Shown in pieces: positions 1,289-25,430 of a DNA stretch of 64,000 nucleotides. Positions within the stretch are counted from its first letter, which is position 1. Each line of letters opens with the position of its first letter. The translations under genes were made by a program, and so were the position numbers. This stretch comes from Clostridia bacterium (lineage in GTDB: Bacteria > Bacillota > Clostridia > Oscillospirales > CAG-272). The notes beneath the pieces are model-generated. The model did no database searches. It was not told where the DNA came from and saw only the letters and a list, made by a program, of their open reading frames with translations. The stretch spans positions 27,899-91,898 of the forward strand of contig JAFSSP010000031.1 in NCBI GenBank assembly GCA_017450945.1, given 5' to 3'.

Positions 1289-1386
1289 AAAAATCTCTCC
1301 AAAAAAGGCCGCCGCATCCTGTGCGACAGCCTTTTTGATTTCCTCGTGGGATACAAAGCCGCAGAGCGCGCAGGTCTTATGGCTTT

Positions 1387-1415
1387 ATTGTATCAAAACG
1401 CAAAGGAAAAGTCAA
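1387..1415 (-). promoter_or_regulatory. Sigma-A-type promoter for chorismate mutase-aroB
   Basis: On the minus strand: TTGACT (1415-1410), 17-nt spacer, TACAAT (1392-1387), about 95 nt upstream of the start codon. Confidence 0.5.
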
Positions 1416-1448
1416 CTTGTTTGCCCGAATTTTGTCGGGTACGAGCGA

Positions 1449-2246: not shown

Positions 2247-2260
2247 TGCAGTTTCCCTCC

Positions 2261-2926
2261 TCACTTAATGGCATATTTGCCGAACTTCTTTTCCAGGCAT
2301 CCCATGACCCAAGCAACGGCAAAATTGAAGATATAGTAAAGCACCCCTGCAACAATGTAAGGCAGCATGCTGACCTCAGCAGCTGCGATCTGCTTTGCTT
2401 TGGTAAACATTTCGATCTGTCCGATGGCAAAGGCGAGCGAGGTATCCTTGACCAGCGTGATGACCTCGTTGGTCACCGGAGGCAGGATTCTGCGCACCAC
2501 CTGCGGAAGAATGACTATGAAAAAGGTCTGCTTGCGATCCATACCAAGCACTCTTGCCGCCTCATATTGGCCTACCGGCATCGAGGAAATCCCCGAACGG
2601 TAAATCTCGGCAAAGTAAGCGGCATAGTTGAGGACGAATGCGAGAATGACCGCAGTCAGGCGATAATTCGCTCCGAAGGTCGAAAGCGGGATCTTAAATG
2701 CAAAGTAAGGCAGATAGTAAATCACAAACAACTGAAGCATCAGTGGCGTTCCACGCATGATCGAAATATAGATTCCAAAGATCGCCGAAACGATTTTGTT
2801 CTTTGCCATGCGCCCGAAAGCAATCAGAAGCCCCAGAGGCAGGGAAAACAGAAGCGTAAGGAAAAAGATCTTCAGCGAAACGCCAATGCCTTCCCAGAGC
2901 AGGTTCAAAATTTGAAAAACAGACAT
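2261..2926 (-). CDS. Polar amino-acid ABC transporter permease
   Basis: Multi-TM ORF with an EAA-like loop (EAARVLGMDRKQTFFIVILPQ). Start chosen at MSVFQIL (2926). Confidence 0.85.
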   Translation of the reverse strand: MSVFQILNLLWEGIGVSLKIFFLTLLFSLPLGLLIAFGRMAKNKIVSAIFGIYISIMRGTPLMLQLFVIYYLPYFAFKIPLSTFGANYRLTAVILAFVLNYAAYFAEIYRSGISSMPVGQYEAARVLGMDRKQTFFIVILPQVVRRILPPVTNEVITLVKDTSLAFAIGQIEMFTKAKQIAAAEVSMLPYIVAGVLYYIFNFAVAWVMGCLEKKFGKYAIK

Positions 2927-2971
2927 ACGAACGAAAATCCTCTCAAAGAAAAGACTGAATAAACACAAGAG

Positions 2972-3002
2972 TCCACAGCACCGCAGAAACTGCGGTGCTG
3001 TG
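2972..3002 (-). terminator. Intercistronic hairpin between the binding-protein and permease genes
   Basis: CCACAGCACCGCAG / CTGCGGTGCTGTGG, a 14-bp perfect stem with a 3-nt loop. The downstream U-run is weak, so it is probably a partial terminator or stabiliser. Confidence 0.45.
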
Positions 3003-3025
3003 GCAAAGGCAACCGAGGATAAAAT

Positions 3026-3808
3026 TTATTTTGCGATCTTGATCGAATCTTCCAGGCCGTAGACCTTTGCGATCTCGTTAGCCTTGTCGGCGAGTTTCAC
3101 CATTGCATCGCTGACCAGTTTGCAAAGTTCGGTGTTGCCCTTCTTGAAACCGACGCCGTACTGTTCCACAGCCAGCGCTTCGGTGAGAATGACGTAACCG
3201 GTCTTGCCTTCGATGAGCGAGTTGGCAACGCCGATGTCGATGACGACTGCGTCAACGGCACCTGCCGTCAGATCGTTGAACGCAGCGGTGTAGTCTGCGC
3301 AAAGCTCGTACTTGCCGTTTTTGAAGGTGGCAACGAGTTCTGCGTCTTTATCCAGCGCATTCTGTCCGGAGGACTCTTTTTGAACGGTAACAACCTTGCC
3401 AGCAAGATCTGCAATGGCGCCAATACCGCTGTCGGCCTTGGTCAGAACAACGATGCTGCTGTCCGAGTAAGCGACCGTCCATTCATAGTCGTTTTCACGT
3501 CCCTGAATGGTAAAACCGCTCCAGATGCAGTCGATGTTGCCTGAATTGAGTTCGAGGTCTTTGCCGTCCCAATCGATCGGGATGAGTTCGAGGTCATAGC
3601 CGATCTCTTTGCAAACTTCTTTTGCAAAGTCGAGGTCGAAGCCCTTGTAGGTGTTGGTCTCGGTGTCGAGATAGCCATAGGGCGGATACTCGGCGTCAAA
3701 ACCGAGCTTCAGGGTTTTGGTTTCTTCTTTCTTCCCACAGGAAGCAAAAACCGCGACGGCGCCTGCCACCATGAGGACGGCAAGGACAAGAGAAAGTACT
3801 TTTTTCAT
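3026..3808 (-). CDS. Polar amino-acid ABC transporter substrate-binding lipoprotein
   Basis: Signal peptide plus lipobox (VAVFASCGKKEE) and an SBP_bac_3-like body (DAEYPPYGY..., IDWDGK). The start at 3808 is preceded by AAAGGAG. Confidence 0.85.
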   Translation of the reverse strand: MKKVLSLVLAVLMVAGAVAVFASCGKKEETKTLKLGFDAEYPPYGYLDTETNTYKGFDLDFAKEVCKEIGYDLELIPIDWDGKDLELNSGNIDCIWSGFTIQGRENDYEWTVAYSDSSIVVLTKADSGIGAIADLAGKVVTVQKESSGQNALDKDAELVATFKNGKYELCADYTAAFNDLTAGAVDAVVIDIGVANSLIEGKTGYVILTEALAVEQYGVGFKKGNTELCKLVSDAMVKLADKANEIAKVYGLEDSIKIAK

Positions 3809-3854
3809 GATTTGATTCTCCTTTGAATTTTGGTTTTGGGGTATCTCCCCCTGA

Positions 3855-3998: not shown

Positions 3999-4026
3999 TC
4001 AAAAGATTGGATTTGGTTTTTTAGGA

Positions 4027-6324
4027 TCAATTCACATCGTCGACCAGCTCGCCGCGAACAACTCTTCCTGCATTCTCCAAAAGGCCGGAAAGATAATCGC
4101 TCCGGACGTAAAATCTTGCAACGGTGTTTTCGGGATGCTCCACAGGAGCGCCGGATTCATCATACTCCGTGACCTTTTCGATCGTGAGGATCGCCTTTTG
4201 TCCGGAATAGCTGTAAAACCGGAGAATGATATCCTTTTCATTATTCTCGGTAAAGAGCTTGACCGTCTTGCCGCTCTCGTTGACAACGCCGTAAGCATTC
4301 ATCAGGTAGCTCGACGCGTCGTCCTCTACCCGGTATCGGATCGTCAAATCCGCGTCGTCTTTGGAAATGCGATCGGCAAGGTAGTCTTCGGGCTCTTTTC
4401 CGGTGAGCTTTTCAAAAGAGACACGATCGATATCGCCCTCAATGGTAAAGTAGAGGCAGCGCTTCCAGAGATAGCGGAAATTATCCAGCGCGGTCAGCGT
4501 TTTGTACTTCTCTTCCCCGAGGTCTGTAACCGTTGTTTTGAGCACCGTATAATCGAGCTCGCCGCCGGCTTCGGGAGAGAAAACGCGCAGATAGTTGGAA
4601 TTGACAGTCGGGCTGAGGAGCGCGTTTCCTGTTTTGTCGTAATAAAGCTCCTCGTGGTCAAAGTCCAACGCATAAAGCGTGTACTTGCCTCCTTCGCTCG
4701 GCAGATACACATAGGTTCCGTTGGAAAGCAGCCCCACGTCCCCGCCCGAAAGGCTCGGGAAGCGGTAGGTTCCTGTTTCATCAATATAATAGGCGTAGGA
4801 AAGGCTGTTGTCGAATACAAAGTGATAGGAAGTGTCTCCCGATTCAAAGGAAAGCTCTTTTAAGTAGGCGATATCCTCCAGCATCGGGTAAGAAGCGTAC
4901 CAATCCTTCTCGGCCCACTCAAGGAAGGAAAGATAGTACTGGTCTACTTCGAGGATCATATCGTAATAGAAGGATGCGACATAATAGCTGCCGCGCTCAG
5001 TCTTTGGACCGATGATCAGGAGGTTGAAATCCTCCTCGCTGTACCCATAGTCACCGTCCCCGGAAGTCAGAAGCGGGTGATAGGTCAAATAGAAGACGTC
5101 TCCGGTGATCCCATACGCTGCGAGCGTTTGGATGCGTTCCTCGCCCTCTCCGAGCCCAAGATGCACGCAGGTGGGCTCGCTCATTTCGTAAAGCAATCCC
5201 AGCATGCTGGAAGCGCTCTCGTCATTGATCTCATACCCCTCCATAAGCTCGGTTCTGCACACATAAGGGCGCGTCTCGAGCAGGGTGTTGGTGCGAACGC
5301 TCTGGTCCTCGTAATCGAAGCGGACGATCGGATAGACCTCTGCATTTGCAAAGCTGCCCTCCAGCGTCATGCGGGCCAGCAGGAAATCCTGCACCATCGG
5401 ATAGGTGTTCACGGTTACCGGGATCACCGCGCAGGCCGAAACCAGGCTCTCCTTGGAGGAAAGAACGGTGGATTCCATCGTACTTGCCGACATGATATAA
5501 ATGGCATTTCTGCCCGCAACGCGAATATAGTATCCGTTTTGATCCAGCGTCCTGTCGCCGACGATGACCGTGTAAGTGCGCGCCGGGTCGATCTCATATC
5601 CCATTTTGGAAGCGTCCTTTGCAGAGACCGTATAGGTAGCCGGCTCGGAAAGAAGCGTTCCGTTATTGTCATATCGCTTTTCCAGTCCGTAAGAAGCGTA
5701 GTCCACGCTGCCGTCGGCATTTTTCTGCACGCCTGCGGAAGAAAAATCCAGCTTGCGCAGGGTCACGGGATAGCCCGCGCCAACCGCGAAGGCCGTAATT
5801 TTTTGGGTATCAAAAGAGACGTGCGGGTTGTCGATCCCGAGGACGCGGAACTGCCCGGTCTCGTCCCGATAGATCTCATAGCTTCCGGTGCTGTTCTGCA
5901 CCTTCACCGCGGCCAGATCCTTTTGCAGAATCTGCGGGAATGCAAGCACCCGACGGGCGTTGGAAATGCTCTCGCCGACCGCCTCATCGTATTCCACAAC
6001 CGCGTAAAGCGACCAGGCGCCGCTCTCGGGATCAATGGTATATTGGTTCCCGCTCCCTGCGGCAATGTATTTGCCCTCCTGGTTTTGCTCCATTCTGTTT
6101 CCGAAGCGGTCAAAGAGCGCGTAAACGCCGTCCTGCTTTTTGACGGTATAACGGTCGGTAACATTTTCACCGTTTGCATCGGTATAGCTGTCGTCAAAAT
6201 GATAAATGCTGATCACATGACTTGCGATCAAGAGCCCTGCGATCAGGGCCAGTGTCAGGATGAAAAGGATCGCGACCCAACGAAGCCTGCGCAAAAAGAG
6301 GGGGTCCATTTGTTTTGTCATCAT
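4027..6324 (-). CDS. Large membrane-anchored extracytoplasmic protein of unknown function (DUF4340-like by position)
   Basis: ATG at 6324 preceded by AAAGGAGGGG. It has a single N-terminal TM (WVAILFILTLALIAGLLIASHV) and then ~720 hydrophilic residues. It is the last gene of the ABC-2/GldG-like operon, the position usually held by DUF4340 proteins. Confidence 0.6.
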   Translation of the reverse strand: MMTKQMDPLFLRRLRWVAILFILTLALIAGLLIASHVISIYHFDDSYTDANGENVTDRYTVKKQDGVYALFDRFGNRMEQNQEGKYIAAGSGNQYTIDPESGAWSLYAVVEYDEAVGESISNARRVLAFPQILQKDLAAVKVQNSTGSYEIYRDETGQFRVLGIDNPHVSFDTQKITAFAVGAGYPVTLRKLDFSSAGVQKNADGSVDYASYGLEKRYDNNGTLLSEPATYTVSAKDASKMGYEIDPARTYTVIVGDRTLDQNGYYIRVAGRNAIYIMSASTMESTVLSSKESLVSACAVIPVTVNTYPMVQDFLLARMTLEGSFANAEVYPIVRFDYEDQSVRTNTLLETRPYVCRTELMEGYEINDESASSMLGLLYEMSEPTCVHLGLGEGEERIQTLAAYGITGDVFYLTYHPLLTSGDGDYGYSEEDFNLLIIGPKTERGSYYVASFYYDMILEVDQYYLSFLEWAEKDWYASYPMLEDIAYLKELSFESGDTSYHFVFDNSLSYAYYIDETGTYRFPSLSGGDVGLLSNGTYVYLPSEGGKYTLYALDFDHEELYYDKTGNALLSPTVNSNYLRVFSPEAGGELDYTVLKTTVTDLGEEKYKTLTALDNFRYLWKRCLYFTIEGDIDRVSFEKLTGKEPEDYLADRISKDDADLTIRYRVEDDASSYLMNAYGVVNESGKTVKLFTENNEKDIILRFYSYSGQKAILTIEKVTEYDESGAPVEHPENTVARFYVRSDYLSGLLENAGRVVRGELVDDVN

Positions 6325-6343
6325 ATCAGTGCTTCCCCTCCTT

Positions 6344-8077
6344 TTATGCGTGCTTTTTGCGCTTTGCAAGCAAAACGCAGCCGAGGATCAGACAGGTCAG
6401 TCCCGGAACAAGGGTAAGGATCGCGGTTTGTCCGTTCGGGCCGAAGAGAAGAATTTGTCCATAGGATGCGCCGGTTTCCGAATCGGTTCCGAACTCCTCG
6501 ACCGGAAGCGTTTTGAAGTTAAGTCCCACCGGCAGAATCTCCTGCCCGATCCCGCGAAGGATCTGTAAAAGAATATCGGTGTTGCCGTAGGCGTTGGTGG
6601 AGAGCGCGTCGTTCTTTGCAAACGCGGTGGAGGCGATGGCGCAAACGTAGGAAGCCTCGTTGACGTTTGTCATTCCCTGCCCTTCCGAAACCGTTCGGCT
6701 CTCTGTTGAGAGGGTGGCGACGCAAAAAGGCGCGTCGGTTTTTGTTACAAGATTGCCTTTATCGTCAAGAACTGCTTTCCCATCCTCTTTTGCAAGGGCA
6801 GTCGCATTGTTTCCGGTGTAAAAGAGATTGCAGATCTCGCGCGAGTTTCCGTTGCTGAAATAGGCACCGTAGGAATAGGCAGGCGTACCGCTCTCGGCGT
6901 CTTCCATGACATAGGTGACTTCATAAGTGGGCGAATAGGAAATGGTTGCGGCGTTCTCAAAGACGGCTTTGGGATGGCCGCCGATCTTGCGTAGATCACT
7001 CAGCAAAGAGGCGCCGCGACCGGCTTCGGAATAAATTGCCGAAAAGCGCTCGCCGCTCTTCCCAAGGTCGTTTTCGGGATCAACAGCTTGATAAATGCCA
7101 TCCAGATCCTCGGTGCGGCCAAAAGAGATGCCCCATTCCTCCAGGTATTCTTCCAGATTCGGCAGATAGGGGGTGTCAGCATCGGCAAAGATCAAAAACG
7201 CATAGGTCTTTTCCAAAAAGGCATCCAGCTTTTTGATCTCGGACGCGCCGGGATTTTTGGGATCGTTGGAAAAATCGGCCGTAGGCCCGAGGGTGACGAT
7301 CAAGCGGCAATCCTCCGGGATCTCTTCGGCGGAAAGATCAAGATACTGCACCCGGTACCCGGCGTTCTGGAGCACCGTGATGAGTTCCGAATATTCGCCG
7401 CTCTCTTTTGCATTTGCTACCGGTTCGCCGTGGTTTGTCGTCAGACAGCAGATCGGCGACTCGGTTCTGGTCACGGCCAGAATATCCTTAACAAATATTT
7501 TTTCGCCGTTGTAGGCCCAGGGAGTTGTTTCCTCGACGCTGTCATAGGTGTAAAAGACTCTGGGCGAGCGGATGCGGAATTCGCTTCCGCTTGAGATGAT
7601 CACGCTGGTCTGGTAAATGGCGGAATAGGAGGTGGTGCGGTAGTCGTCTACCGAAGAGGGATTGTTCCAGACGTCGACCGTGCGCACCGAAATGGACTTT
7701 GGAAATTCTCTTTCAAGAAGCCGCGCGGTGTAGTAGATCGGCCGCATCTCATCATTTGCCACAAGGAGATCTTCGTCAGCGCAGAACAAAATTTCCACTT
7801 TGGCGGGCGCCCCGTCCTCCGTGTGCGCGCTTTCCAGCACCGAGGAGAGCAGATTCACGGTTTCATCCACCAGCGAATAGAGACCGGTTTTGACCCAAAT
7901 TCCCCGACCGCCGGCGGTCGAACGGTAATTGAGAGAGGTCAGATCACTCTGAACCAAAAATTTTCCGAACAGAGCCGTCACTCCGATATTGCAAAGGAGA
8001 ATGCCAACGACCACAAGGCAGGTGACAAGGGTTGTCACCCACCGGGACGCATGTCCTGTGGAAAAGCGATGTTTCAT
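6344..8077 (-). CDS. GldG-like ABC-transporter auxiliary protein, paralog 2
   Basis: N-terminal and C-terminal TM helices flank a large extracytoplasmic domain. It shares the block CLTTNHGEP...AGYRVQYLDLSAEEIPEDCRLIV with the neighbouring paralog. Confidence 0.7.
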   Translation of the reverse strand: MKHRFSTGHASRWVTTLVTCLVVVGILLCNIGVTALFGKFLVQSDLTSLNYRSTAGGRGIWVKTGLYSLVDETVNLLSSVLESAHTEDGAPAKVEILFCADEDLLVANDEMRPIYYTARLLEREFPKSISVRTVDVWNNPSSVDDYRTTSYSAIYQTSVIISSGSEFRIRSPRVFYTYDSVEETTPWAYNGEKIFVKDILAVTRTESPICCLTTNHGEPVANAKESGEYSELITVLQNAGYRVQYLDLSAEEIPEDCRLIVTLGPTADFSNDPKNPGASEIKKLDAFLEKTYAFLIFADADTPYLPNLEEYLEEWGISFGRTEDLDGIYQAVDPENDLGKSGERFSAIYSEAGRGASLLSDLRKIGGHPKAVFENAATISYSPTYEVTYVMEDAESGTPAYSYGAYFSNGNSREICNLFYTGNNATALAKEDGKAVLDDKGNLVTKTDAPFCVATLSTESRTVSEGQGMTNVNEASYVCAIASTAFAKNDALSTNAYGNTDILLQILRGIGQEILPVGLNFKTLPVEEFGTDSETGASYGQILLFGPNGQTAILTLVPGLTCLILGCVLLAKRKKHA

Positions 8078-8080
8078 CTC

Positions 8081-9646
8081 CTAAGATTCCTTTCGATCGG
8101 ATGGTTCGATTTTGTTCTTGCGTCGAATGAGGATCACCGGCGCAAGGATGCCGCAGACAAGGATCGGCAAGGACACGAGTCCTACCGTCCAAAGCAGTTT
8201 TTCGCGGATCGTCACAAGGCTCATGCGATCCGAAGAGAAGGGCTTTACAGTAAGGCCTTCCGGCGTTTCCCCCGCCCCGAACAGACTGCACAGACGCAGC
8301 AGAACATCGCGGTTTGCGTAAACCGCGCTTTGCAGATAGGCCCCTTCCCCGAAGGAGGTCGAAGCAAATACGCTCACAAAAGAGCTTCCGCTTCCCAGAT
8401 CCACTTCGGTCAGGGTCGCAAGGATGGATTCCCCTGCGCCCACCTGTTTGCCGCCCGCAAAGGCTTCGGCGCGCTCGCCGGAGGTATAAAGAGCCGAAAG
8501 CGTCATGTTTGCTTTTTCGTAGCGGCCGTTTCCGCGGTTGACAAAGCCAGAGGCAACACGGATCTCCGTAGCGTTTTTGAAAACCGCGCCGCCCTTCACG
8601 CCGTCAAGGAGAGAGGACTTTGCAAGACCGTAGATCGTGTATCCGTCGGAGGTCAGCGTCATGGAGTCATCCTTGACCGAATAGCGGTAAGTCTTGTCGG
8701 GATCCTCGCTTGACGCCGAATAGGAAAACGAGACGCCGTACTGCAAAAGAAAGCTCTCAAGAGAAGCAAGTCGCGGCGTTCCGCTCTCAGCAAAAAGCAA
8801 AAAGTGATTTCCGGGCGTGGAAAGAAAGTCTTTTAAGCAATCGGTCTCGGACGCCCTGTTTCCGTCGCTGTCCAGAAAATCGGTATTGGGATTGTAGGTC
8901 AGAATCAGGTTGCAGGACGCGGGGATCTCCTCTTTTGAAAGATCGATATAATCGACCGCGTATCCCGCGTCGTCGAGCAGATAGATCAGTTCGTAATCGT
9001 AAAAGGTTTCGCCATGGTTGTTGGTCAAAAGAGCCAGCGGCGCGTCGTCTCTTTGCGCATGCAAAAGGCCTGCCGCCAGTTTGACCTCGCCGGCGTAAGC
9101 GTAGACTTTGGAAAGATCTCCGTCCTCAAAGGAAAAGAACTCTTCAATGTCGTAAACCCGGTAGTAGTCGCCCGAAGAAAGGATCACACTGCTCTCATAG
9201 AGCGCCCGGGTTTTGGGGTTGCCCGCTTCGTCAAGCGCCGTCTTCCCGGTGCGGGCATCCTTTACAAAGGAATACTTGCGCAGTGCGTCCGGGGACTCGA
9301 CCAGATCAGCAAATAAGACCGTGATCTTCTCGTAACGCGCAGCAAGGCTTTCGGCCGTCTCCAGGATGTAGCGCAGATTCCGGTCGGCATAGATCGTATC
9401 CCGATCCCGCAAAAACAGAATGGTGACCGGACGTGCATCCGCACCGAGAGAGCGGTCGAGGAGCGCATAGCATTCTTCGCTGACCCCATAGTCGGGGGAA
9501 GCGGTCAGGTAGCTGTACCAGGAATAGCGCTTTGCGAGCTTCCCAACGAGCGAGTTCAAGAGAATGACCGAAAGGAGCACAAGGCAGAGCAAAAGGATGC
9601 CAAGCGCGTGCAGTCGCCCCCTGTTCGTTTTGAGCCATTGCTTCAT
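8081..9646 (-). CDS. GldG-like ABC-transporter auxiliary protein, paralog 1
   Basis: Same bitopic layout as paralog 2 (TM at both ends). Conserved block LLTNNHGET...AGYAVDYIDLSKEEIPASCNLIL. RBS GGAGGG. Confidence 0.7.
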   Translation of the reverse strand: MKQWLKTNRGRLHALGILLLCLVLLSVILLNSLVGKLAKRYSWYSYLTASPDYGVSEECYALLDRSLGADARPVTILFLRDRDTIYADRNLRYILETAESLAARYEKITVLFADLVESPDALRKYSFVKDARTGKTALDEAGNPKTRALYESSVILSSGDYYRVYDIEEFFSFEDGDLSKVYAYAGEVKLAAGLLHAQRDDAPLALLTNNHGETFYDYELIYLLDDAGYAVDYIDLSKEEIPASCNLILTYNPNTDFLDSDGNRASETDCLKDFLSTPGNHFLLFAESGTPRLASLESFLLQYGVSFSYSASSEDPDKTYRYSVKDDSMTLTSDGYTIYGLAKSSLLDGVKGGAVFKNATEIRVASGFVNRGNGRYEKANMTLSALYTSGERAEAFAGGKQVGAGESILATLTEVDLGSGSSFVSVFASTSFGEGAYLQSAVYANRDVLLRLCSLFGAGETPEGLTVKPFSSDRMSLVTIREKLLWTVGLVSLPILVCGILAPVILIRRKNKIEPSDRKES

Positions 9647-9658
9647 AGGAGCCCTCCG

Positions 9659-10426
9659 TCAGCCGATCCTGCGCCGCTCGTAAAGGCGAACGGTCAAAAA
9701 CAAGAAGAGAAAGGACAAGGATACATAGTAAATGAGCGCGGCATAATCGAAAATGCCGGTAGAGAAAAGCGAGAAGCGGCTGAATACCGAGATCCAGTCG
9801 AGGATACTGCGAAAGGCGACCGCAAGAATCGGCTGTCCGTCGGCATCCGACATGCGCCCCAAAAGAGAGGCACCGAGCATGAGCGAGATCGCCCCCACCG
9901 TTACCACTGCTGCCGAGAGCTGATTCTCGGTCAGCGCCGAAATGAGCGTTCCCAGCGCAATGAGCGCCGCGCCGAGAAGAAGCACCGCGATCAGACTGCC
10001 GAAGATCTCGCCGCTGACCGGCCCGATCTGGCGCATTTGCGAAGAAGTTCCGTTTCGTTCCGCCGCGCCGATCACATAAAGCGGGATCAAATTGACGCAG
10101 GAAACAAGAATGCCGCCGGCAAACACGGTCAGCGCCGCAAAATACTTGCCGAGCACCATGCCGGTCAAGGATACCGGCGAGGTCAAAAGAAGCTGCTCGG
10201 TCTTCATTTTCCGCTCCTCGGCAAAGAGCCGCATGGTCAGGAGCGGAATGAGAACGATAAAGGAAAGGATCAGATTGGAATAATAGTTTGCCGTTGAATA
10301 GCTGCCCGCAATGAGCGTGGTATAGCAGCAAAGGAAGGCGGAAAACGCAAGAAAGACCCCAAGGTAAATATACCCGATGGGATTGACAAAATAGGAACGC
10401 AGTTCCTTTTTGTAAATGGCTTTCAT
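9659..10426 (-). CDS. ABC-2 type transporter permease
   Basis: 255-aa protein with 6 TM helices starting MKAIYKKELRSYFVNPIGYIYLG, typical of ABC-2 (GldF-like) permeases. It overlaps the ATPase stop by 4 nt. Confidence 0.8.
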   Translation of the reverse strand: MKAIYKKELRSYFVNPIGYIYLGVFLAFSAFLCCYTTLIAGSYSTANYYSNLILSFIVLIPLLTMRLFAEERKMKTEQLLLTSPVSLTGMVLGKYFAALTVFAGGILVSCVNLIPLYVIGAAERNGTSSQMRQIGPVSGEIFGSLIAVLLLGAALIALGTLISALTENQLSAAVVTVGAISLMLGASLLGRMSDADGQPILAVAFRSILDWISVFSRFSLFSTGIFDYAALIYYVSLSFLFLFLTVRLYERRRIG

Positions 10427-11484
10427 TCGGTCTTTTCCTCCTCTCCCTGCTTCTTTGCGGCGGCTTCAAACAGTTCCTTGCCCGCGTCGGTCTCGGCCGA
10501 GGCACGTCCGCGGTTGCGCCTGGGCGCGCGCCTGCGTGCCGAAGCGGCTTCCTCCGCCGTGTCCACGACCGAAAGGAACACCTCTTCGAGATTGACGCCG
10601 AGCGTCTCCATGCCCACAAGCGGGTAATCCTTTTCTGCAAGCGTGTAAAAGAGCTTTTTGCGCAGATCCACTCCGTCGCCGCTCTCAACAAGATAGGTGT
10701 AGGAATCCTCGTCCCGCTCGGAAAGAACTTCCGCGCGACTCACGCCGGGGATCTTTTCCAACAGTGCCAGAACCTCTTTTTGCGGGCCTGCGATCTTCAA
10801 CTTAAAGCGTCTTGTGCGCGCGGTCATACGGGCAATGTTCTCGGTTCTCTCGTCGGCAACAAGTTTTCCCTTGTTGATAATGAGGATCCTGTCACAGACC
10901 GCCTGCACTTCCTGCAGGATATGTGTCGAAAGGATCACCGTGTGACTGCGGCCAAGGCCGCGGATGAGGTTGCGGATCTCGATGATCTGCTTGGGATCCA
11001 GTCCCACGGTCGGCTCGTCAAACACCAGCACCGCCGGGTCGCCCACCAGAGCGCCCGCAATGCCGACTCTCTGCTTATAGCCCTTGGAGAGCGTCTTGAT
11101 GAGCTTTTTGCGGCACTCGTAGACGCGGGCACTCTCGGCCACCTCGCGCAGATGCTTTTCGCGGTCGGCCTTGCAGCCTTTTAATTCATAGAGAAAGTTC
11201 AGGTACTCCTCCACCGAAAGATCGGGATAGAGCGGCGGCTGTTCGGGCAGGTATCCGATCTTGCGCTTGGCGGCAATCGGATCCTTTTGAATATCCAGTC
11301 CGTCGATCGAAACCGATCCGGAGGTCGGCGCCAGGTAGCCGGTCAGAATATTCATAGCGGTACTCTTCCCCGCGCCGTTTGGGCCGAGGAAGCCCACGAT
11401 CTCGCCCTTTTCCACCGAAAAGCTGACGTCGGACAGCGCGTTGGTCGCTCCGTAATTTTTGACAAGATGTTCCACTTTGATCAT
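10423..11484 (-). CDS. ABC transporter ATP-binding protein (ABC-2 subfamily) with charged C-terminal tail
   Basis: Walker A GPNGAGKST, signature LSKGYKQRVGIAGAL, Walker B VLVFDEPTVGLD. The last ~50 aa are Arg/Glu/Ala-rich. Confidence 0.9.
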   Translation of the reverse strand: MIKVEHLVKNYGATNALSDVSFSVEKGEIVGFLGPNGAGKSTAMNILTGYLAPTSGSVSIDGLDIQKDPIAAKRKIGYLPEQPPLYPDLSVEEYLNFLYELKGCKADREKHLREVAESARVYECRKKLIKTLSKGYKQRVGIAGALVGDPAVLVFDEPTVGLDPKQIIEIRNLIRGLGRSHTVILSTHILQEVQAVCDRILIINKGKLVADERTENIARMTARTRRFKLKIAGPQKEVLALLEKIPGVSRAEVLSERDEDSYTYLVESGDGVDLRKKLFYTLAEKDYPLVGMETLGVNLEEVFLSVVDTAEEAASARRRAPRRNRGRASAETDAGKELFEAAAKKQGEEEKTE

Positions 11485-11702
11485 CGGTACAGAATCCTTT
11501 CCCGGGTAATCTTATTATCTGTTTGATTTTATCATAAAAATATGAATGCAGTATGAACAGCAGGTGAAAAGCGTCCTTCGGGAAATTCTTTTTTGTGGAA
11601 TTGTGCGGCTTTTTTGACAAAAGCTGAATAAAGCGGCTCCATGAGGCAAGAATAAGGATAACAGGCTGCCGTCGGCAGTCGGATAAGAAAAGGAGTTTCA
11701 CC

Positions 11703-12491
11703 ATGAATTTCAAAGAAGATTTCCGAAAGAAATTAAAAAAGATCAAAGCGGAGCAGGTCATTTCGATCGTGGCGGTCATCATCGTTCTGACTCTGGCAGT
11801 CGTTCTGACGATCACCGCCGTCAACAACCGCGCAAAGAAGAACAGTCTCCCCGAGCCCGACTTCAGCGGCGGCGAACAGACCGAGACCAAAACGCCTCCC
11901 AAGACCGATACGCCCAAGGAGAACGAAGAGCCGAAGAAGACCGAGCAACCCGACACGACGCCGACCGTAAAAGAAGAGACGCCTCCCTCGCTGTCCCTGC
12001 CGGTCTCGGGCAGTCTCTCAAAAACGCACAGCGTAGACGTACAGGTCTTTTCCAAGACCATGAACGAGTACAGAACGCATCTCGGCGTTGACATTTCCAC
12101 CACCGAAGAGGCCGACGTGCGCGCTTCGGCCGACGGCGTGGTGCAAAAGGTCTGGGAGGATCCCATGATGGGACAGTGCGTGGCGCTCACCCATGCCGGC
12201 GAATGCGTCACCGTCTATAAAAATCTTGCCGCCACGCTTGCCGAAGGGATTGAAGAAGGGGCAACCGTCCGTGCGGGACAACTTCTCGGCAAGGTCGGCG
12301 ACAGCGCCATGATGGAGATTGCGGAAGAGCCGCATCTGCACATGGAGGTCACCGTAAAGGGCCTGCAGGTCGATCCGATGGAATATTTCAGCCGCGCGGC
12401 CCTCGAGGATCTGACGCAGGGGGACAACGGCTTTGAAGACCCGGACGCCTCGGCAACTCCTCCCGAGACAACGACTCCCGCCGCAAAATAA
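11703..12491 (+). CDS. Membrane-anchored M23/LytM metallopeptidase (SpoIIQ-like architecture)
   Basis: N-terminal TM, a Pro/Glu/Lys/Thr-rich linker, then a LytM domain with intact HxxxD (HLGVD) and HxH (HLHME) zinc ligands. Confidence 0.85.
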   Translation: MNFKEDFRKKLKKIKAEQVISIVAVIIVLTLAVVLTITAVNNRAKKNSLPEPDFSGGEQTETKTPPKTDTPKENEEPKKTEQPDTTPTVKEETPPSLSLPVSGSLSKTHSVDVQVFSKTMNEYRTHLGVDISTTEEADVRASADGVVQKVWEDPMMGQCVALTHAGECVTVYKNLAATLAEGIEEGATVRAGQLLGKVGDSAMMEIAEEPHLHMEVTVKGLQVDPMEYFSRAALEDLTQGDNGFEDPDASATPPETTTPAAK

Positions 12492-12494
12492 GTC

Positions 12495-12538
12495 AAAAAA
12501 ATCCGGGCGAACCGTAGATCGGTTCGCCCGGATTTTTT
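12495..12538. terminator. Bidirectional rho-independent terminator
   Basis: A6, then ATCCGGGCGAACC, a 7-nt loop, GGTTCGCCCGGAT, then T5. The stem is 13 bp and perfect. It serves the convergent M23 gene and the small-peptide operon. Confidence 0.8.
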
Positions 12539-12729
12539 CAAACGATGTCCGAGACCGTCTGCAAGGCTTCCCCGGTGCGCGAGAGGATCTTCTCCACCCG
12601 TCGAACAGCGCGCAGCGTTCGCATCTTTTTGGAATTCCATAACAGATAGGCTCCGGCACCGAGCAGTGCGCTGCCTCCAAAAAGACCTGCCGTGATGATA
12701 AGAGATTTTTTGTTTTTCATGTGATTCAT
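12538..12729 (-). CDS. 63-aa single-TM peptide (YtxH-like or holin-like layout)
   Basis: Basic N-terminus, a Gly-zipper TM (IITAGLFGGSALLGAGAYLLW) and a charged amphipathic C-terminal helix. RBS AGGAAAGGA. It is the last gene of the operon facing the S24 repressor. Confidence 0.55.
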   Translation of the reverse strand: MNHMKNKKSLIITAGLFGGSALLGAGAYLLWNSKKMRTLRAVRRVEKILSRTGEALQTVSDIV

Positions 12730-12791
12730 TGCATTTTTTCCTTTCCTGTGGATTCCTTCATAGTATGCACAAACTTGGAAAAAAGCATACG

Positions 12792-13166
12792 CTACACTTT
12801 GCTTTTTCGCTTTTTGTAAGCGATCGACGCAAGAAACAGCCCCTTATCATGCAGCCGGTATCCGGTGCGGCGCGAAACGCCGAGCAGATCGGATACCCGC
12901 TCGACGCTGAGCCCCTTGATATAGCGATAATGAAGCACAAGCTTTGCCCTGCCGTTCGGCAAAGAGGAAATGAGAAGCCCGATCTCCATCATGCGACTTT
13001 TCCAGAAGGCCTCGTTGCCGGACAAAAGCACCTCGTCCACCGGATCGGGAAAGGGTGACGGATGCACCCGCTCGTACTGCCGTAGTTGCAGCATTTCAAC
13101 GCAATAGCGATATCCCGAGAGGTATTCCTGTATTTCCCTTCGATCGACCTCCTCAATACTGGCCAT
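12792..13166 (-). CDS. Sigma-70 region-4-like HTH protein (ArpU/DUF1492-like small activator)
   Basis: C-terminal LVLHYRYIKGLSVERVSDLLGVSRRTGYRLHDKGL matches the region 4.2 HTH pattern. Start chosen at MASIEEV (13166), preceded by GGGGGAGG, overlapping the upstream ORF by 14 nt. Confidence 0.6.
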   Translation of the reverse strand: MASIEEVDRREIQEYLSGYRYCVEMLQLRQYERVHPSPFPDPVDEVLLSGNEAFWKSRMMEIGLLISSLPNGRAKLVLHYRYIKGLSVERVSDLLGVSRRTGYRLHDKGLFLASIAYKKRKSKV

Positions 13167-13404
13167 CCGGCAACCTCCCCCAGGCCTCAAAGCCCTGGTC
13201 GAGCATCCAGTCGGTCTCGTCTGTTTCGCAAATCCGTAAAAAGTCTTGGGCCGGAGTGCTTAAAATGCAATACCTGCAATACGGAATTCCGTTTTTGACA
13301 TAGAACCTCCACTGTCTGTCAAGCGGCTCTCCGCAGGCGGCGCAGTGTGGGATCCCCTCTTCCGAAAAATCCTCCCGTATCCTGCTATCATAAGATTTTT
13401 TCAA
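13153..13404 (-). CDS. Small zinc-ribbon protein
   Basis: 83 aa with two CxxC pairs (CAAC...CRYC). TTG start at 13404, 8 nt after AAAGGAGG. Confidence 0.55.
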   Translation of the reverse strand: MKKSYDSRIREDFSEEGIPHCAACGEPLDRQWRFYVKNGIPYCRYCILSTPAQDFLRICETDETDWMLDQGFEAWGRLPDGQY

Positions 13405-13434
13405 TTTTTCATCCTCCTTTTTTCAAAAAATCTG

Positions 13435-13530
13435 TTGACAAGTTTTCCAAAATCCTGTATACTGTATTTTGTAGTACCAGTATAACGTATTTCCGAAATT
13501 TTGTCAATCACTTTTTCGCATTTCCGAAAT
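13435..13530. promoter_or_regulatory. Interlocked promoter pair with two ATTTCCGAAAT palindromes
   Basis: Plus strand: TTGACA 13435-13440, 17 nt, TATACT 13458-13463. Minus strand: TTGACA 13507-13502, 17 nt, TATACT 13484-13479. Palindromes lie at 13489-13499 and 13520-13530. Confidence 0.55.
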
Positions 13531-13603
13531 ATTCGTTACTTTTTGACAAAGAAATTGTCGAAACTTTGAGTATTTTGTCGAAACCCAAAATCAGGAGGTC
13601 TTT

Positions 13604-14233
13604 ATGGAGTATTCTGTTTTTGAACGCCTCCTTGCTTTGCGCAAGGTCAACGTCTCGCAAGTGGCGCGTGCCACCGGCATCGCCTCCTCCACCTTTACCG
13701 ACTGGAAGAACGGCCGCTCGGTCCCCAAAGCCGACAAGCTGGCCAAGATCGCAGATTATTTTTCGGTCAGCCTCGACGAGCTTCTCGGCACCGAGACCGG
13801 CAACCGCTCCAGCGAAGTCTCCTACCGCCATCTGCGCCAAAAGAAGATGGTTCCGGTCATTGGGGTGATCCGCGCCGGCTCGCCGATTGTTACCGACGAG
13901 ACGCTCATCGGCAAGGAATTTGCCGACGTGGACGACACCAACGAATATTTTTATCTCGAGGTCTGCGGCGACAGCATGAAGGATTGCGGCATTGTGGAAG
14001 GGACCTATGTGCTTTTCCACAAACAGCAGTACGCCGAGGACGGCGAGATCGTCGCCTGCCTTGTCGACGGCGAAAGCGCGACCGTCAAGCGCTTTCACAG
14101 AAAGAACCGCAAGATCATCCTCTCACCCGAGAACAAGGATTACGAGCCGATCCTCCTCTCGCCCGAGGATTTTGAAACCGGGCGCGCCCGCATCCTCGGC
14201 GTTGCCATTGAGGCCAAAACCAAGCTGTTATGA
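13604..14233 (+). CDS. XRE-HTH / peptidase S24 self-cleaving repressor (LexA/CI/HdiR-like)
   Basis: N-terminal HTH_3-type motif (VSQVARATGIASSTFTDWKNGRSVP), Ala-Gly cleavage site (VIRAGSP), catalytic Ser (CGDSM) and Lys (TVKRF). RBS AGGAGG. Confidence 0.9.
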   Translation: MEYSVFERLLALRKVNVSQVARATGIASSTFTDWKNGRSVPKADKLAKIADYFSVSLDELLGTETGNRSSEVSYRHLRQKKMVPVIGVIRAGSPIVTDETLIGKEFADVDDTNEYFYLEVCGDSMKDCGIVEGTYVLFHKQQYAEDGEIVACLVDGESATVKRFHRKNRKIILSPENKDYEPILLSPEDFETGRARILGVAIEAKTKLL

Positions 14234-16164
14234 TCGATCTTTCTGTCAACGAACTTTCCTTTTCGGTCGGCGTCTCTCCGATCTTGGAAAAGGTCTCCTT
14301 CTCTCTTTCCGAGGGCGACCGCATGGGAGTGATCGGCCGCAACGGATGCGGAAAATCCACGCTTTTGAACCTCATTTCGGGAAGGATCTCCCCCACCGAT
14401 GGGAACGTGTATCTTGCAAAGGGCAAGCGGATCGGCATTCTGACCCAGGACGGCGCGCTCTCCTGCGAAAATGCAGAGGAGACGATCCTTGATCGCATGT
14501 ACGACGCCTTTCCCCTGCTGATCGAACTGGAAGAAAAGCTCTCGGAGCTTGAAAAAAGGCTCTCCGGCGGCGACGAAAAGGACATCCGAGACTATGCCGA
14601 TCTGCACGAGAAATTCGTCAAAGGCGGAGGCCTCGAATTCCGCGGCCGCGCCGCCTCAATCCTACAAAAACTCGGATTTTCCAAGGAGCAATTCTCTCTC
14701 CCGGTCGCCGCACTCTCGGGCGGGCAAAAGACCAGGCTCGCGCTTGCCATTGAGCTTGCCCGCGCGCCCGAGATCCTGCTCCTCGACGAGCCGACCAACC
14801 ACCTTGATCTTGCCACGCTGACCTGGCTCGAGGATTACTTAAAAACCTATCCCGGCAGTGTGATGGTCGTCTCGCACGACCGCTATTTTCTCGACCGGGT
14901 AACAAACAAAACCCTCTCGATTGAGCGCCACAAGGCAAAGCTTTATAACGGCGGCTACACAAAAAGCATGGAACAGCGCCGCATCGACCGCGAGGTGGCC
15001 GAAAAGCAGTGGCGCGACCAGCAAAAGGAGATCGCGCGGCAAAAGGCCTATATTGCCCAGCAGAGGGCCTGGAACCGCGAGCGCAACATCATTGCCGCCG
15101 AGAGCCGCCAAAAGCTCCTCGACAAAATGGAGCTTGTCGACCGTCCCGAGGCCGAGGAAAAATCGATCCGCATGACCTTTCGCGAGGACATTCCCTCGGG
15201 GCAGGATGTGCTCACGGTCAAAAATCTTTCCATGAGTTATGGAAGCCACACGCTCTTTCGGGATCTCTCTTTCCTCGTCCGCAGGGGCGAGCGGATCCTC
15301 GTCATCGGCCCCAACGGGTGCGGAAAGTCCACGCTCGTGCGCCTGCTGCTCGGCAAACTCTCCCCCACAGGCGGCAAGGTGGAGTACGGCTATAACCTCA
15401 AAATCGGCTACTACGATCAGGAAAACCAAAACCTGTCGCCCCAAAAGACGGTGCTCGCAGAGCTTTGGGACGCTTACCCGACCCTGACCGAGACTGAGGT
15501 CAGAAACACGCTCGGGCTTTTTCGCTTCACCGGCGACGACGTCTTCAAGACCGTATCTGTCCTCTCGGGCGGCGAGCGGGCAAGACTGACGCTTGCCAAG
15601 CTCTTGCTTGCCAAGACCAATTTTCTCGTCCTCGACGAGCCGACCAACCACCTCGACCTTGACACCAAAGAGGTGCTGGAGGGCGCGCTCGCAAAGTTTT
15701 CCGGCACGCTTTTGATCGTCTCGCACGACCGCTATCTCGTTGAGCATCTGGCAACGCGGATTCTCGAACTGCATCCGGGCTTCCCCTTCCCCGGCGACCT
15801 GCTCGACTTCCCGGTCGAACACGTCGGCTCTTCCTACACCGAGTTTTCGCTCTACAAGGAAGCAAGACGCGCCGAGCGGGCGCAAAATGCCCCCGCGGAA
15901 GCCTCGCAAAACAAACCGGTCTCCTCGCAAAAGGAGCAGTATCTCAAAAAGAAGCAGGCCGAGGCCGAGGAGCGCAAACGCGCCGCCGCCCTCGAACGCG
16001 CAAAAAAAGAAGCCGCCTCTCTGGAAGAGGAGCTTGCAGGGCTCGAAGAAAAGCTCTACGGCGGCGACGGCCTTTCGGACTACCTCCTTGCCGCCGAACT
16101 CGAAACGCGCAAAACCACCGTCGAGGAGCGCCTAATGGAGCTGTATGAGATGATGGAAGAATAA
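14230..16164 (+). CDS. ABC-F family ATPase (two ABC domains, C-terminal coiled coil)
   Basis: Two Walker A motifs (GRNGCGKST, GPNGCGKST), two signatures (LSGGQKTR, LSGGERAR), no TM segment, a basic interdomain linker and an Ala/Glu/Lys coiled-coil tail. Its ATG overlaps the repressor TGA. Confidence 0.9.
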   Translation: MIDLSVNELSFSVGVSPILEKVSFSLSEGDRMGVIGRNGCGKSTLLNLISGRISPTDGNVYLAKGKRIGILTQDGALSCENAEETILDRMYDAFPLLIELEEKLSELEKRLSGGDEKDIRDYADLHEKFVKGGGLEFRGRAASILQKLGFSKEQFSLPVAALSGGQKTRLALAIELARAPEILLLDEPTNHLDLATLTWLEDYLKTYPGSVMVVSHDRYFLDRVTNKTLSIERHKAKLYNGGYTKSMEQRRIDREVAEKQWRDQQKEIARQKAYIAQQRAWNRERNIIAAESRQKLLDKMELVDRPEAEEKSIRMTFREDIPSGQDVLTVKNLSMSYGSHTLFRDLSFLVRRGERILVIGPNGCGKSTLVRLLLGKLSPTGGKVEYGYNLKIGYYDQENQNLSPQKTVLAELWDAYPTLTETEVRNTLGLFRFTGDDVFKTVSVLSGGERARLTLAKLLLAKTNFLVLDEPTNHLDLDTKEVLEGALAKFSGTLLIVSHDRYLVEHLATRILELHPGFPFPGDLLDFPVEHVGSSYTEFSLYKEARRAERAQNAPAEASQNKPVSSQKEQYLKKKQAEAEERKRAAALERAKKEAASLEEELAGLEEKLYGGDGLSDYLLAAELETRKTTVEERLMELYEMMEE

Positions 16165-16174
16165 AAGAAAAATG

Positions 16175-16336
16175 CGGGAAAACCCTTTTTTGAAAAAAAG
16201 AGGTTTTCCCGCACCTTTTCCGAAAAAACGAACAATAGAAAAAAGCACTTGCCTGACTCTACAGCGACGGAAAGTAAATCGGTCAAAGCTTTTGAAAGAG
16301 GTGCGGAGGAAACTTTTCTCGAAAAGTTTCCTCCGC
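16175..16336. repeat. Composite two-hairpin terminator-like element (copy 1)
   Basis: One hairpin is GCGGGAAAACC...GGTTTTCCCGC (16175-16212). The other is GCGGAGGAAACTTTTC..GAAAAGTTTCCTCCGC (16303-16336). The element sits between the convergent ABC-F and valS genes. Confidence 0.75.
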
Positions 16337-16350
16337 ATTTCTTCTTTCTT

Positions 16351-25140: not shown

Positions 25141-25217
25141 TGGTCGGAGTGACTGGACTCGAACCAGCGGCCTCTTGGTCCCGAACCAAGCGCACTACCA
25201 AGCTGTGCCACACCCCG
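25141..25217 (-). tRNA. tRNA-Pro (anticodon CGG)
   Basis: A 77-nt cloverleaf folded by hand: acceptor CGGGGTG/CACTCCG, anticodon stem CTTGG/CCAAG with loop TTCGGGA, T-loop TTCGAGT and encoded CCA. An upstream TTGACA-17-TACAAT lies at 25263-25235 on the minus strand. Confidence 0.9.
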
Positions 25218-25354: not shown

Positions 25355-25430
25355 GCTGGTGTAGCACAGCCGGTAGTGCAGCTGATTCGTAATCAGCAGG
25401 TCGTGTGTTCGAATCACATCACCAGCTCCA
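25355..25430 (+). tRNA. tRNA-Thr (anticodon CGU)
   Basis: A 76-nt cloverleaf: acceptor GCTGGTG/CACCAGC, anticodon stem GCTGA/TCAGC with loop TTCGTAA, T-loop TTCGAAT and encoded CCA. TTGACA-17-TATAAT lies at 25315-25343. Confidence 0.9.

Follow-up and report, generated by a model that had tools for sequence, protein, structure and literature searches.

A putative DNA-damage-controlled promoter pair between a repressor/ABC-F operon and a sigma-region-4-like regulator operon in uncultured gut Clostridia

Genes and promoters of the locus

The stretch of DNA analysed here (the window) comprises 64,000 nucleotides (nt) of a Clostridia bacterium of the Oscillospirales, CAG-272 (assembly GCA_017450945.1, contig JAFSSP010000031.1, positions 27,899 to 91,898). 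The locus under study consists of a gene for a predicted self-cleaving repressor of the XRE helix-turn-helix (HTH)/peptidase S24 type, followed by an ABC-F ATPase gene, and, on the opposite strand, genes for a Zn-ribbon protein, a sigma-region-4-like regulator and a membrane peptide of 63 amino acids (aa). The features are collected in Table 1. The repressor gene and the three small genes opposite to it, the four genes of a preliminary description of this DNA, are predicted as well on a metagenome scaffold of 214 kb by an independent gene caller.

Table 1. Features of the locus and its immediate surroundings (positions in the window; a dot marks features without strand)
Feature	Position	Strand	Basis or remark
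Sigma-F-type forespore promoter of the M23 gene, GAATA-N14-GGCAAGAATA	11626-11654	+	Conserved in loci L001 and L005
Bidirectional intrinsic terminator, shared with the convergent M23 gene	12494-12540	.	Perfect 20-bp stem, T-runs on both strands
Small membrane peptide, 63 aa	12538-12729	-	Gly-rich N-terminal hydrophobic helix, invariant WN, basic C-terminal helix
Forespore-type (sigma-G/sigma-F) promoter of the peptide gene, GTATG-N18-CATACTAT	12760-12790	-	Pattern match
Sigma-region-4-like regulator (DUF1492/ArpU-like), 124 aa	12792-13166	-	ATG behind GGAGG; overlaps the Zn-ribbon gene by 14 nt
Zn-ribbon protein, 83 aa, first gene of the P_sig operon	13153-13404	-	TTG start, GGAGG ribosome-binding site, CAAC...CRYC
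O4, operator-like site TTTCGCAAATCCGTAA / TTCGCAAATCCG	13224-13239	.	Inside the Zn-ribbon gene, LRICE codons
P_rep, TTGACA-17-TATACT, drives the repressor/ABC-F operon	13435-13463	+	11/12 consensus match
O3, degenerate candidate operator in the P_rep spacer	13441-13457	.	Intact O3 in 24/94 regions
P_sig, TTGACA-17-TATACT, drives the Zn-ribbon/sigma-4-like operon	13479-13507	-	11/12 consensus match; inverted repeat I1, 39 nt
O2, candidate operator, TTCGGAAATACG on the minus strand	13485-13501	.	Fills the P_sig spacer; family consensus agTTCGGAAATgCGaTATAAT
O1, candidate operator, palindrome ATATTTCG-N6-CGAAA	13514-13532	.	Just upstream of the P_sig -35, in the repressor mRNA leader
Two exact direct repeats TTGTCGAAAC, 20 nt apart	13555-13564 and 13575-13584	.	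Repressor mRNA leader
XRE-HTH/peptidase S24 self-cleaving repressor (predicted), 209 aa	13604-14233	+	Pfam, PHROG, orthologue alignment
ABC-F ATPase, 644 aa, C-terminal coiled coil	14230-16164	+	NCBIfam NF000355

The repressor matches Peptidase_S24 (PF00717, 5e-24), HTH_26 (1.8e-11), HTH_3 and HTH_19 in Pfam, and its best PHROG match is PHROG 4 (phage repressor, 2.5e-36). The residues A91-G92 (VIRAGSP), S124 (GDSMK) and K162 (VKRF) do not vary among 43 unique orthologues, which provides the Ala-Gly linker site and the Ser-Lys dyad of the S24 superfamily of LexA, CI and UmuD. The preliminary description had credited the protein with every element of a RecA-stimulated self-cleaving repressor and with an XRE-type DNA-binding domain in place of the LexA winged helix; both statements are borne out, as the N-terminus is of the XRE type and gives no match to PF01726. 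The protein is also distinct from LexA proper, as evident from a TIGR00498 (lexA) score of 97.7 against a cutoff of 110.95, confined to residues 68-200 of the C-terminal domain. The LexA box of Firmicutes is the Cheo box, GAAC-N4-GTTC; the repressor modules carry TTCG-N6-CGAA sites and no GAAC-N4-GTTC.

The stop codon of the repressor gene overlaps the start codon of the ABC-F gene (ATGA at 14230), so that the two are translationally coupled, and the gap between them ranges from -4 to +47 nt in all loci. Because of this overlap, and with the linkage conserved, the repressor cannot be regarded as the orphan it had been taken for. The downstream product shows the domain order ABC_tran, ABC_tran_Xtn, ABC_tran of ABC-F proteins and scores 455.8 bits with NF000355 (ribo_prot_ABC_F; cutoff 380); the Uup model gives 380 bits, below its own cutoff. 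A known defence system was considered and rejected, since the small proteins have no PADLOC match and the ABC-F protein matches generic ATPase models only.

Both the CxxC...CxxC first gene of the opposite operon and its 14-nt overlap with the second, as originally described, were recovered. The Zn-ribbon protein shows the conserved motifs CxxC...CxxC, G[KI]PYC and RICE, and nothing above cutoff was found for it in Pfam, PHROG and NCBIfam. Of 56 loci, 28 have a homologous open reading frame (ORF), those of the most distant subclade among them, and one subclade has lost it; this distribution indicates that the gene is ancestral. Since it is ancestral and translationally coupled to the regulator gene, the Zn-ribbon protein is likely to be a partner or an antagonist of the regulator.

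The 124-aa protein scores 25.7 bits with HTH_23 (cutoff 24.6) and, marginally, 22.4 bits with DUF1492 (PF07374, cutoff 21.5; residues 66-115), a score above the gathering threshold which, together with a small sigma-4 fold, places it with DUF1492/ArpU. It matches PHROG 36 (3.9e-11) and PHROG 248 (1e-5), which are transcription regulator/activator families, as do distant members of its own family. The resemblance of its C-terminus to sigma-70 region 4.2, noted earlier, holds at the level of the fold and not of the sigma families: Sigma70_r4 reaches 20.8 (cutoff 24.1), TIGR02937 (sigma-70/extracytoplasmic function sigma factors) reaches 22.2 (cutoff 42.9), and the AlphaFold2 model (predicted local distance difference test 89.5, predicted template modelling (TM) score 0.82) contains a sigma-4 domain and two N-terminal helices, with no region 2. 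On superposition with the PDB, the C-terminal 55-75 residues of the model fit isolated sigma-4 domains with a TM score of 0.63-0.81 and a root-mean-square deviation (rmsd) of 1.4-4.5 Å; matches at 1.4-2.6 Å are among these, as are those to SigD4 (3vep and 3vfz, ~1.8 Å), SigR region 4 (5fgm, TM score 0.81) and SigL4 (3hug); full-length sigma factors align poorly (rmsd about 8-25 Å). Full-length matches are found among the predicted viral structures of BFVD, to phage proteins of 108-140 aa named 'Sigma70', DUF1492 or 'transcriptional activator' (E from 4e-4, TM score up to 0.67). A PDB sequence search with the family profile gave sigma-F region 4 as its best match (E = 0.01), which is uninformative beyond the fold result, and some family members bear the NCBI label 'sigma-70 family RNA polymerase sigma factor'. 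The family is narrow, with 36 close clusters and 421 representatives among 1.84 billion proteins. No phage late (packaging or lysis) genes lie downstream or nearby in more than 100 contexts. The model and the family matches indicate that the protein is a cellular cousin of the ArpU/RinA/DUF1492-type late activators and not a sigma factor of the TcdR/UviA type.

The region between the repressor and Zn-ribbon genes is 199 nt long and holds two sigma-A promoters face to face. Their -10 boxes are 15 nt apart within the inverted repeat, and their footprints overlap; the two start sites, as placed from the promoter positions, would nearly coincide at about 13470 and 13472. Because the -10 boxes face each other at this distance, each transcript must cross the other promoter, and only one RNA polymerase can be accommodated at a time. 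Of 94 unique intergenic regions, 89 contain P_sig and 82 the facing P_rep, the two -10 boxes being separated by 13-17 nt. In the family, the facing promoter appears as the reverse complement of TTGACA-17-TATAAT about 15 nt past the P_sig -10, reading toward the repressor, and the intergenic regions, aligned on the P_sig -35, share the sharply conserved core aAAtATTtcGaAaatcCGAAAtA..taTTGACAAtagTTCGGAAATgCGaTATAAT.

Candidate operators of the TTCG-N6-CGAA type are distributed over this promoter pair. O1 reads ATATTTCG-N6-CGAAATAT in the aligned family, and 73 of the 89 P_sig regions have its right arm, CGAAA, at most 32 nt from the -35; an O2-like site occupies 71 of the 89 P_sig spacers. O4 is present in 36 of the 94 regions, and genomes which have lost the Zn-ribbon ORF (L008, L009, L012, L015, L021, L023) keep its DNA motif at a distance of ~50-100 nt before the sigma-4-like gene; it therefore probably works at the DNA or RNA level. 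The TTGTCGAAAC repeats of the repressor leader are conserved in the closest relatives only; a second regulator might bind there, and the sigma-4-like protein is one candidate. An inverted TTTGACAAA occurs near them at 13541-13550.

Conservation of the block and exchange of its regulator

A scan of species-representative genomes with the repressor alignment gave 208 matches. In 65 of the best 80 (62-91% identity), the block of the ABC-F and repressor genes and the divergent sigma-region-4-like gene is complete, and most of the other loci in this set are cut by contig ends. All fetched contexts show this arrangement, with or without the Zn-ribbon gene, among housekeeping genes (valS, an ABC transporter, MGDG synthase, proS, ftsW, efp, S20, spo0A), and the flanks differ between subclades. 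A scan of the species genomes with the 124-aa sequence alone gave nothing; with the family alignment it gave 44 loci, all in metagenome-assembled genomes (MAGs) of uncultured gut or rumen Clostridia/Oscillospiraceae and nearly all with the same core. Identities across loci are 58-91% for the repressor, 54-78% for the ABC-F protein and 28-78% for the sigma-like protein. No integrase, structural or replication genes flank the block in the fetched contexts, and no phage genes occur among the annotated genes of the window, the rest of which are metabolic and transport genes. The proposal that the locus is a prophage is ruled out by this synteny with varying housekeeping flanks in more than 100 species, in agreement with the initial view of it; likewise, no cargo gene is seen in any context, as had been noted for a toxin. 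The comparison indicates that the locus is chromosomal and vertically inherited in more than 100 species of uncultured gut Clostridia.

The repressor gene is absent in five related species (L040/L147, L042/L162, L043/L161, L153 and L164), in which the distance from the ABC-F gene to the sigma-like gene is 210-330 nt. In all five, a LexA box of the Cheo type (GAACAAATGTTC, GAACATTTGTTC or GAACACATGTTC) lies ~10 nt after the -10 of the same TTGACA-17-TATAAT promoter, and the facing promoter is recognisable ~40-60 nt beyond the box in four of them (not in L040/L147). In the 1.5 Mb of collected sequence that was scanned, GAAC-N4-GTTC occurs 16 times, and nearly all matches outside these promoters fall within coding sequences; a LexA box is never seen together with an S24 gene or XRE operators in the module promoter regions. 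In a further genome (L032) the repressor is lost and no LexA box is present; the operators are decayed and the promoters remain. These observations are read as the replacement of one regulator by another at a fixed SOS promoter pair, which is the strongest available argument for a LexA-like job of the XRE/S24 protein. As the promoter pair has a canonical LexA box in five species which lack the repressor, DNA-damage control gains independent support, and with it the SOS-type switch of the preliminary description. In this LexA-box lineage, the position of the 63-aa peptide is taken by a protein of 72-82 aa which is not homologous to it but also starts with a hydrophobic helix; the switch may thus be linked to a small membrane protein, as is the case for yneA or sosA. 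In L040, a gene for a Spo0A-like response regulator (5643-6554, minus strand) is convergent to the sigma-4-like gene, and the clade therefore carries core sporulation genes.

The reach of the repressor was assessed with a position weight matrix of the operator, which gave 675 hits, 564 inside modules and 111 weak ones outside. The outside hits were rejected as evidence of a regulon, the top ones being coding coincidences (the RecF N-terminus, the inside of the ABC-F gene, an aminopeptidase). No second exact operator exists in the window, and no convincing operators were found outside modules in about 1.3-1.5 Mb of clade sequence (about 10 kb per genome). A search of the collected sequence for lexA and recA returned one recA, in L069, and every LexA match lay within the modules' own XRE/S24 repressor genes. 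The consensus sigma-A promoter of this recA gene carries neither an XRE operator nor a Cheo box. From this pattern, the repressor looks like a private regulator of its locus rather than a global SOS regulator. The sole intergenic candidate for a second regulated promoter is in L130 (about 3269-3330), in which an O1-like ATTTACGAAAAACGAAAA lies just upstream of a TTGACA...TACAAT promoter of a gene for a 496-aa lipoprotein-like product, 3 kb from the module.

Some high-scoring matches to the operator are produced by RecF N-terminal codons (RVS-D/N-FRN; VSDFRNI), as at position 14580 of L092 and at position 111 of L103, the latter at the recF start after dnaN; this coincidence calls for caution in regulon scans with the motif. 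In L069, recA (5001-6113) and a recX-like gene (4330-5001) lie directly downstream of the sigma-4-like gene. At 1117-3850 of the same locus, ORFs resembling phage portal and major capsid proteins were noted, as judged by eye from the sequence.

The peptide and M23 genes and their surroundings

The peptide gene begins 62 nt downstream of the sigma-4-like gene. Its product has no family match above cutoff in Pfam, PHROG and NCBIfam (DMAC1_Dmo2 at 26.3, under the cutoff of 27). Holin_BhlA/UviB, for which a check had been proposed, gave no match, and neither did any other holin family including TcdE; a single weak non-holin match to PHROG (phrog_35934, virion structural protein, E 0.0046) was obtained, with none in the lysis category. 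The family is tiny and confined to this clade: only 79 clusters among 5.8 billion belong to it, each of them derived from Clostridia MAGs and labelled hypothetical. The peptide is absent from many genomes which keep the switch, and both it and the Zn-ribbon protein are missing in a whole switch-keeping subclade.

In work on B. subtilis, the consensus of sigma-G is GHATR-N17/18-CAHWHTAH and that of sigma-F is G[CT]ATA-N14/15-GGnnAnAHTR. Of 21 unique regions preceding the peptide gene, 10 contain the strict sigma-G pattern, against 0.004 expected; these 10 are half of all 20 matches in the 1.2 Mb scanned, and the peptide promoter is the single match in the window, where CATACTA[AT] also occurs once. 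In most genomes the upstream sequence reads GAATA-N17-CATACTAA, and the promoter is seen in L143 and at a stand-alone peptide copy far from any switch (L145). In the window it is also part of a weak hairpin, GTATGC...GCATAC. Forespore promoters mapped in C. difficile share the G[ACT]ATA -35 element, and their -10 elements are comparable (Table S6 of PMC3789822). The peptide gene is primarily its own transcription unit and, from its promoter type, is probably expressed in the forespore. The tightly coupled three-gene operon of the preliminary description is therefore upheld for the Zn-ribbon and sigma-like genes and not for the peptide gene, which stands 62 nt off with a promoter of its own. 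Read-through from P_sig into the peptide gene is possible, because no strong terminator intervenes between it and the sigma-like gene. The bidirectional terminator said to end the operon was recovered as well.

The convergent M23 gene (11703-12491) has SpoIIQ as its best NCBIfam match, below cutoff, and is adjacent to the switch in the closest relatives only. It had been described as having a TTGACA -35 and no recognisable -10, and hence as a possible target of the sigma-like protein. Both suggestions give way to a conserved sigma-F-type promoter (in relatives, G[AC]ATA-N14-GGCAA[GA]AATA) in front of this SpoIIQ-like gene: the missing sigma-A -10 is explained by its presence, the sigma-like protein is not needed, and the TTGACA at 11614-11619 is probably irrelevant. 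The promoters of the peptide and M23 genes are both of the forespore-regulon type. That the sigma-like protein drives them was rejected, since sigma-F/G types require a region-2-bearing sigma factor and the motif has no further occurrence in the window.

On its other side, the M23 gene adjoins a cluster at 4000-11500 (minus strand) for an ABC ATPase, an ABC-2 permease, a GldG-like ABC_transp_aux protein and a DUF4340 protein, syntenic in the closest relatives only. An Rfam scan for structured RNAs or leaders gave nothing inside 12.4-14.3 kb, and the sub-threshold matches at 16.16-16.35 kb are hairpins of a dispersed, hairpin-rich intergenic repeat (about 65-180 nt, 80-95% identity). Copies of this repeat lie at 16163-16347, 45251-45429 and 50249-50331, with shorter pieces near 55478-55562 and 58240-58321, and occupy the gaps separating convergent genes, for example ABC-F and valS. 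Two large LRR_5 repeat proteins are encoded at 47610-49211 (plus strand) and 55752-57851 (minus strand), one of them fused to a peptidyl-prolyl isomerase domain, and internal DNA repeats of 80-87% identity occur at 55.9-56.8 kb.

Positions 2792-23166 of the window are identical (100%) to metagenome scaffold_125 (214 kb), and 25342-59211 match scaffold_1059 (92.6 kb) at over 99.9%. Left of 25342, scaffold_1059 carries other genes (ksgA-type RrnaAD, GDPD). The position lies between tRNA-Pro (25141-25217) and tRNA-Thr (25355-25430), so the window joins two arrangements at tRNA genes, by either a strain rearrangement or an assembly join.

Interpretation and relation to known systems

Taken together, the locus is probably a domesticated, vertically inherited switch in the style of CI and LexA, which puts one promoter pair under DNA-damage control. 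Repressor dimers would bind the TTCG-N6-CGAA-type sites O1-O4 and silence P_sig, and would limit P_rep, much as lexA restrains its own expression, either through occupancy of O3 or by blocking elongation within the 134-nt leader. On DNA damage, the signal of the RecA filament would lead to self-cleavage at Ala91-Gly92 by Ser124/Lys162; P_sig would then fire and yield the Zn-ribbon protein and the 124-aa protein, which consists of sigma region 4 only and is most likely a transcription activator or an RNA-polymerase-associated factor like the late activators of phages. Read-through from P_sig may raise the expression of the 63-aa peptide. As the overlapping promoters would compete, the switch may be bistable. 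A broader and more tentative version, possible rather than probable, extends this to the family-level clade: an SOS promoter pair would have passed from LexA to a private XRE/S24 repressor co-translated with ABC-F, with bistable and mutually exclusive outputs, coupling damage to a translation factor and to a domesticated phage late activator checked by the Zn-ribbon protein; the regulon of the activator might concern sporulation or a cryptic element elsewhere in the genome.

Several points weigh against the proposed damage switch. The search for distant operators and for lexA covered about 10 kb per genome, and the recA observation comes from a single genome, L069. The response of ABC-F is ambiguous in direction: derepression could induce it, and competition between the promoters could shut it off. 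No targets of the sigma-4-like protein were found in the sequence covered, and its mechanism cannot be assigned from sequence, region 2 being absent. In addition, some LexA-like XRE/S24 regulators respond without RecA, as is reported for IrvR of Streptococcus mutans (PMC7101444).

This last example bears on the explanation that the signal is something other than RecA-bound single-stranded DNA, such as proteotoxic, envelope or translation stress; the repressor would then be cleaved or degraded independently of RecA, and its link to ABC-F would reflect translation stress and not DNA damage. Co-transcription of the repressor with a ribosome-associated ABC-F factor fits it, as does the lack of any SOS gene linked to the module except the chance recA neighbour in L069. 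It is nevertheless quite unlikely: in five species without the repressor this promoter pair has a canonical LexA box, which argues for its control by DNA damage, and the Ala-Gly site and Ser/Lys dyad are invariant, as in RecA-stimulated repressors. Unlikely, too, is that the XRE/S24 protein is the master SOS repressor of the clade, a non-canonical LexA in place of the winged-helix one, comparable to that of Bacteroidetes or to HdiR in streptococci, with ABC-F and the sigma-4-like protein as just two members of a larger regulon. Such a role would agree with a repressor which is as conserved as ABC-F (58-91% vs 54-78%), vertically inherited and equipped with an invariant cleavage apparatus, and which probably regulates itself like lexA through O3 and through O1/O2 in its own leader; the L069 recA without a Cheo box could mean that canonical LexA control is absent in that lineage, and non-canonical LexA proteins are documented (PMC8565304). 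However, neither some 1.3 Mb of clade sequence nor the window yielded convincing outside operators, the L069 recA lacks the XRE operator as well, the decay of operators upon repressor loss fits a cis-local role, and a sister lineage uses canonical LexA at this very promoter.

The preliminary description had compared the layout with UviA/UviB of Clostridium perfringens and TcdR/TcdE. In such a model, a LexA-type repressor would control a small alternative sigma factor and a holin-like peptide, perhaps for the release of a toxin or bacteriocin or for control of the M23 gene. The gene order (repressor, then Zn-ribbon, sigma-like and small membrane peptide) invites the comparison, as do the absence of a strong terminator before the peptide gene and the presence of a small protein with an N-terminal hydrophobic helix, though non-homologous, after the sigma-4-like gene even in the LexA-box lineage. 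The analogy is supported for neither of its components: the 124-aa protein has no region 2 (TIGR02937 22.2 vs 42.9), and the peptide has no holin, BhlA or UviB match and is preceded by its own forespore-type promoter even at a stand-alone copy. With the peptide and the Zn-ribbon protein missing in a whole switch-keeping subclade, no cargo gene in any context, CATACTA[AT] occurring once in 64 kb, and an M23 gene which has a conserved sigma-F-type promoter and is a neighbour only in the closest relatives, this explanation is very improbable, and such an exotic reading is not needed. Least credible is a decaying prophage immunity region of a CI-like repressor and a late activator, retained by chance and without host function. 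The matches of the repressor to PHROG 4 and of the regulator to PHROG 36/248, and the phage proteins among the structural neighbours, would be expected from it. It would hardly account for ORFs kept intact across more than 100 species, with a catalytic site that does not vary, promoters and operators that are conserved and a constant operon link to ABC-F, nor for a locus never flanked by integrase, structural or replication genes, at which host LexA took over the same promoter pair in one lineage.

If the DNA-damage switch is accepted, the locus offers a natural case of regulator replacement at a fixed promoter, with canonical LexA in some species and an XRE/S24 repressor in more than 100 others. 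SOS-type control would also extend to an ABC-F translation factor and to a sigma-4 regulator of phage origin, a link for which literature searches gave no precedent. The TTCG-N6-CGAA operator and the compact design of overlapping promoters are directly testable and reusable as a genetic part, and, should DNA damage flip the switch, it could matter for the response of the abundant, uncultured gut and rumen Clostridia to DNA-damaging drugs and phage-inducing conditions.

Among known systems, lexA is divergent from an SOS operon in B. subtilis (yneA-yneB-ynzC) and in S. aureus (sosA). The present locus resembles them in a putatively autoregulated S24 repressor divergent from an operon, inferred to be damage-induced, which includes or is followed by a small membrane protein, and the same promoter pair carries a real LexA box in five sister species. 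It differs in its XRE domain, in its TTCG-N6-CGAA operator and in apparently serving one locus; the divergent operon encodes a Zn-ribbon and a sigma-4-like protein, and the peptide has a forespore promoter and no LysM or SosA similarity. HdiR of Lactococcus and Streptococcus, IrvR and the non-canonical LexA of Bacteroidetes are chromosomal XRE-HTH/S24 proteins controlling few adjacent genes. The architecture is shared with these, homology being seen at the domain level; the targets here are ABC-F and a phage-type sigma-4 regulator and not umuC-type polymerases or irvA. To our knowledge, overlapping face-to-face promoters and an ABC-F operon are not features of those systems.

Facing promoters are a feature of phage immunity switches, which include CI/Cro of lambda and the face-to-face lytic and lysogenic promoters of phages 186 and P2, with a spacing of about 60 nt in 186. 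A CI-like repressor (PHROG 4), multiple operators on a strong promoter and interference between facing promoters are common to both; unlike in 186, the -10 boxes here are 13-17 nt apart, no phage genes are present, and the 'lysogenic' transcript carries a host ABC-F gene in a locus inherited vertically in over 100 species. The 124-aa protein is similar in size to ArpU, RinA and DUF1492 proteins and to Xpf of PBSX, with which it shares a C-terminal sigma-4-type HTH, a helical N-terminal part and a gene position downstream of a repressor-controlled early promoter; it differs from them in its narrow family, its chromosomal setting, its pairing with a Zn-ribbon protein and the absence of terminase or structural genes downstream. 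The group-5 sigma factors TcdR, UviA, BotR and TetR are about 180-190 aa long and possess regions 2 and 4, and uviA is LexA-controlled. With TcdR/UviA and their partners TcdE/UviB only the general logic is shared, a stress-controlled small transcription factor beside a small membrane protein; the 124-aa protein, unlike these, has no region 2 and scores below the sigma-70/extracytoplasmic function cutoff, and neither a holin match nor toxin or bacteriocin cargo accompanies it. The parts of the locus belong to known families, namely S24 repressors, ABC-F proteins and DUF1492-type regulators. Four features, of which the literature searches returned no description, appear new: the ABC-F operon, the nearly coincident facing promoters, the Zn-ribbon/sigma-4 cargo and the interchange of LexA and the XRE/S24 repressor.

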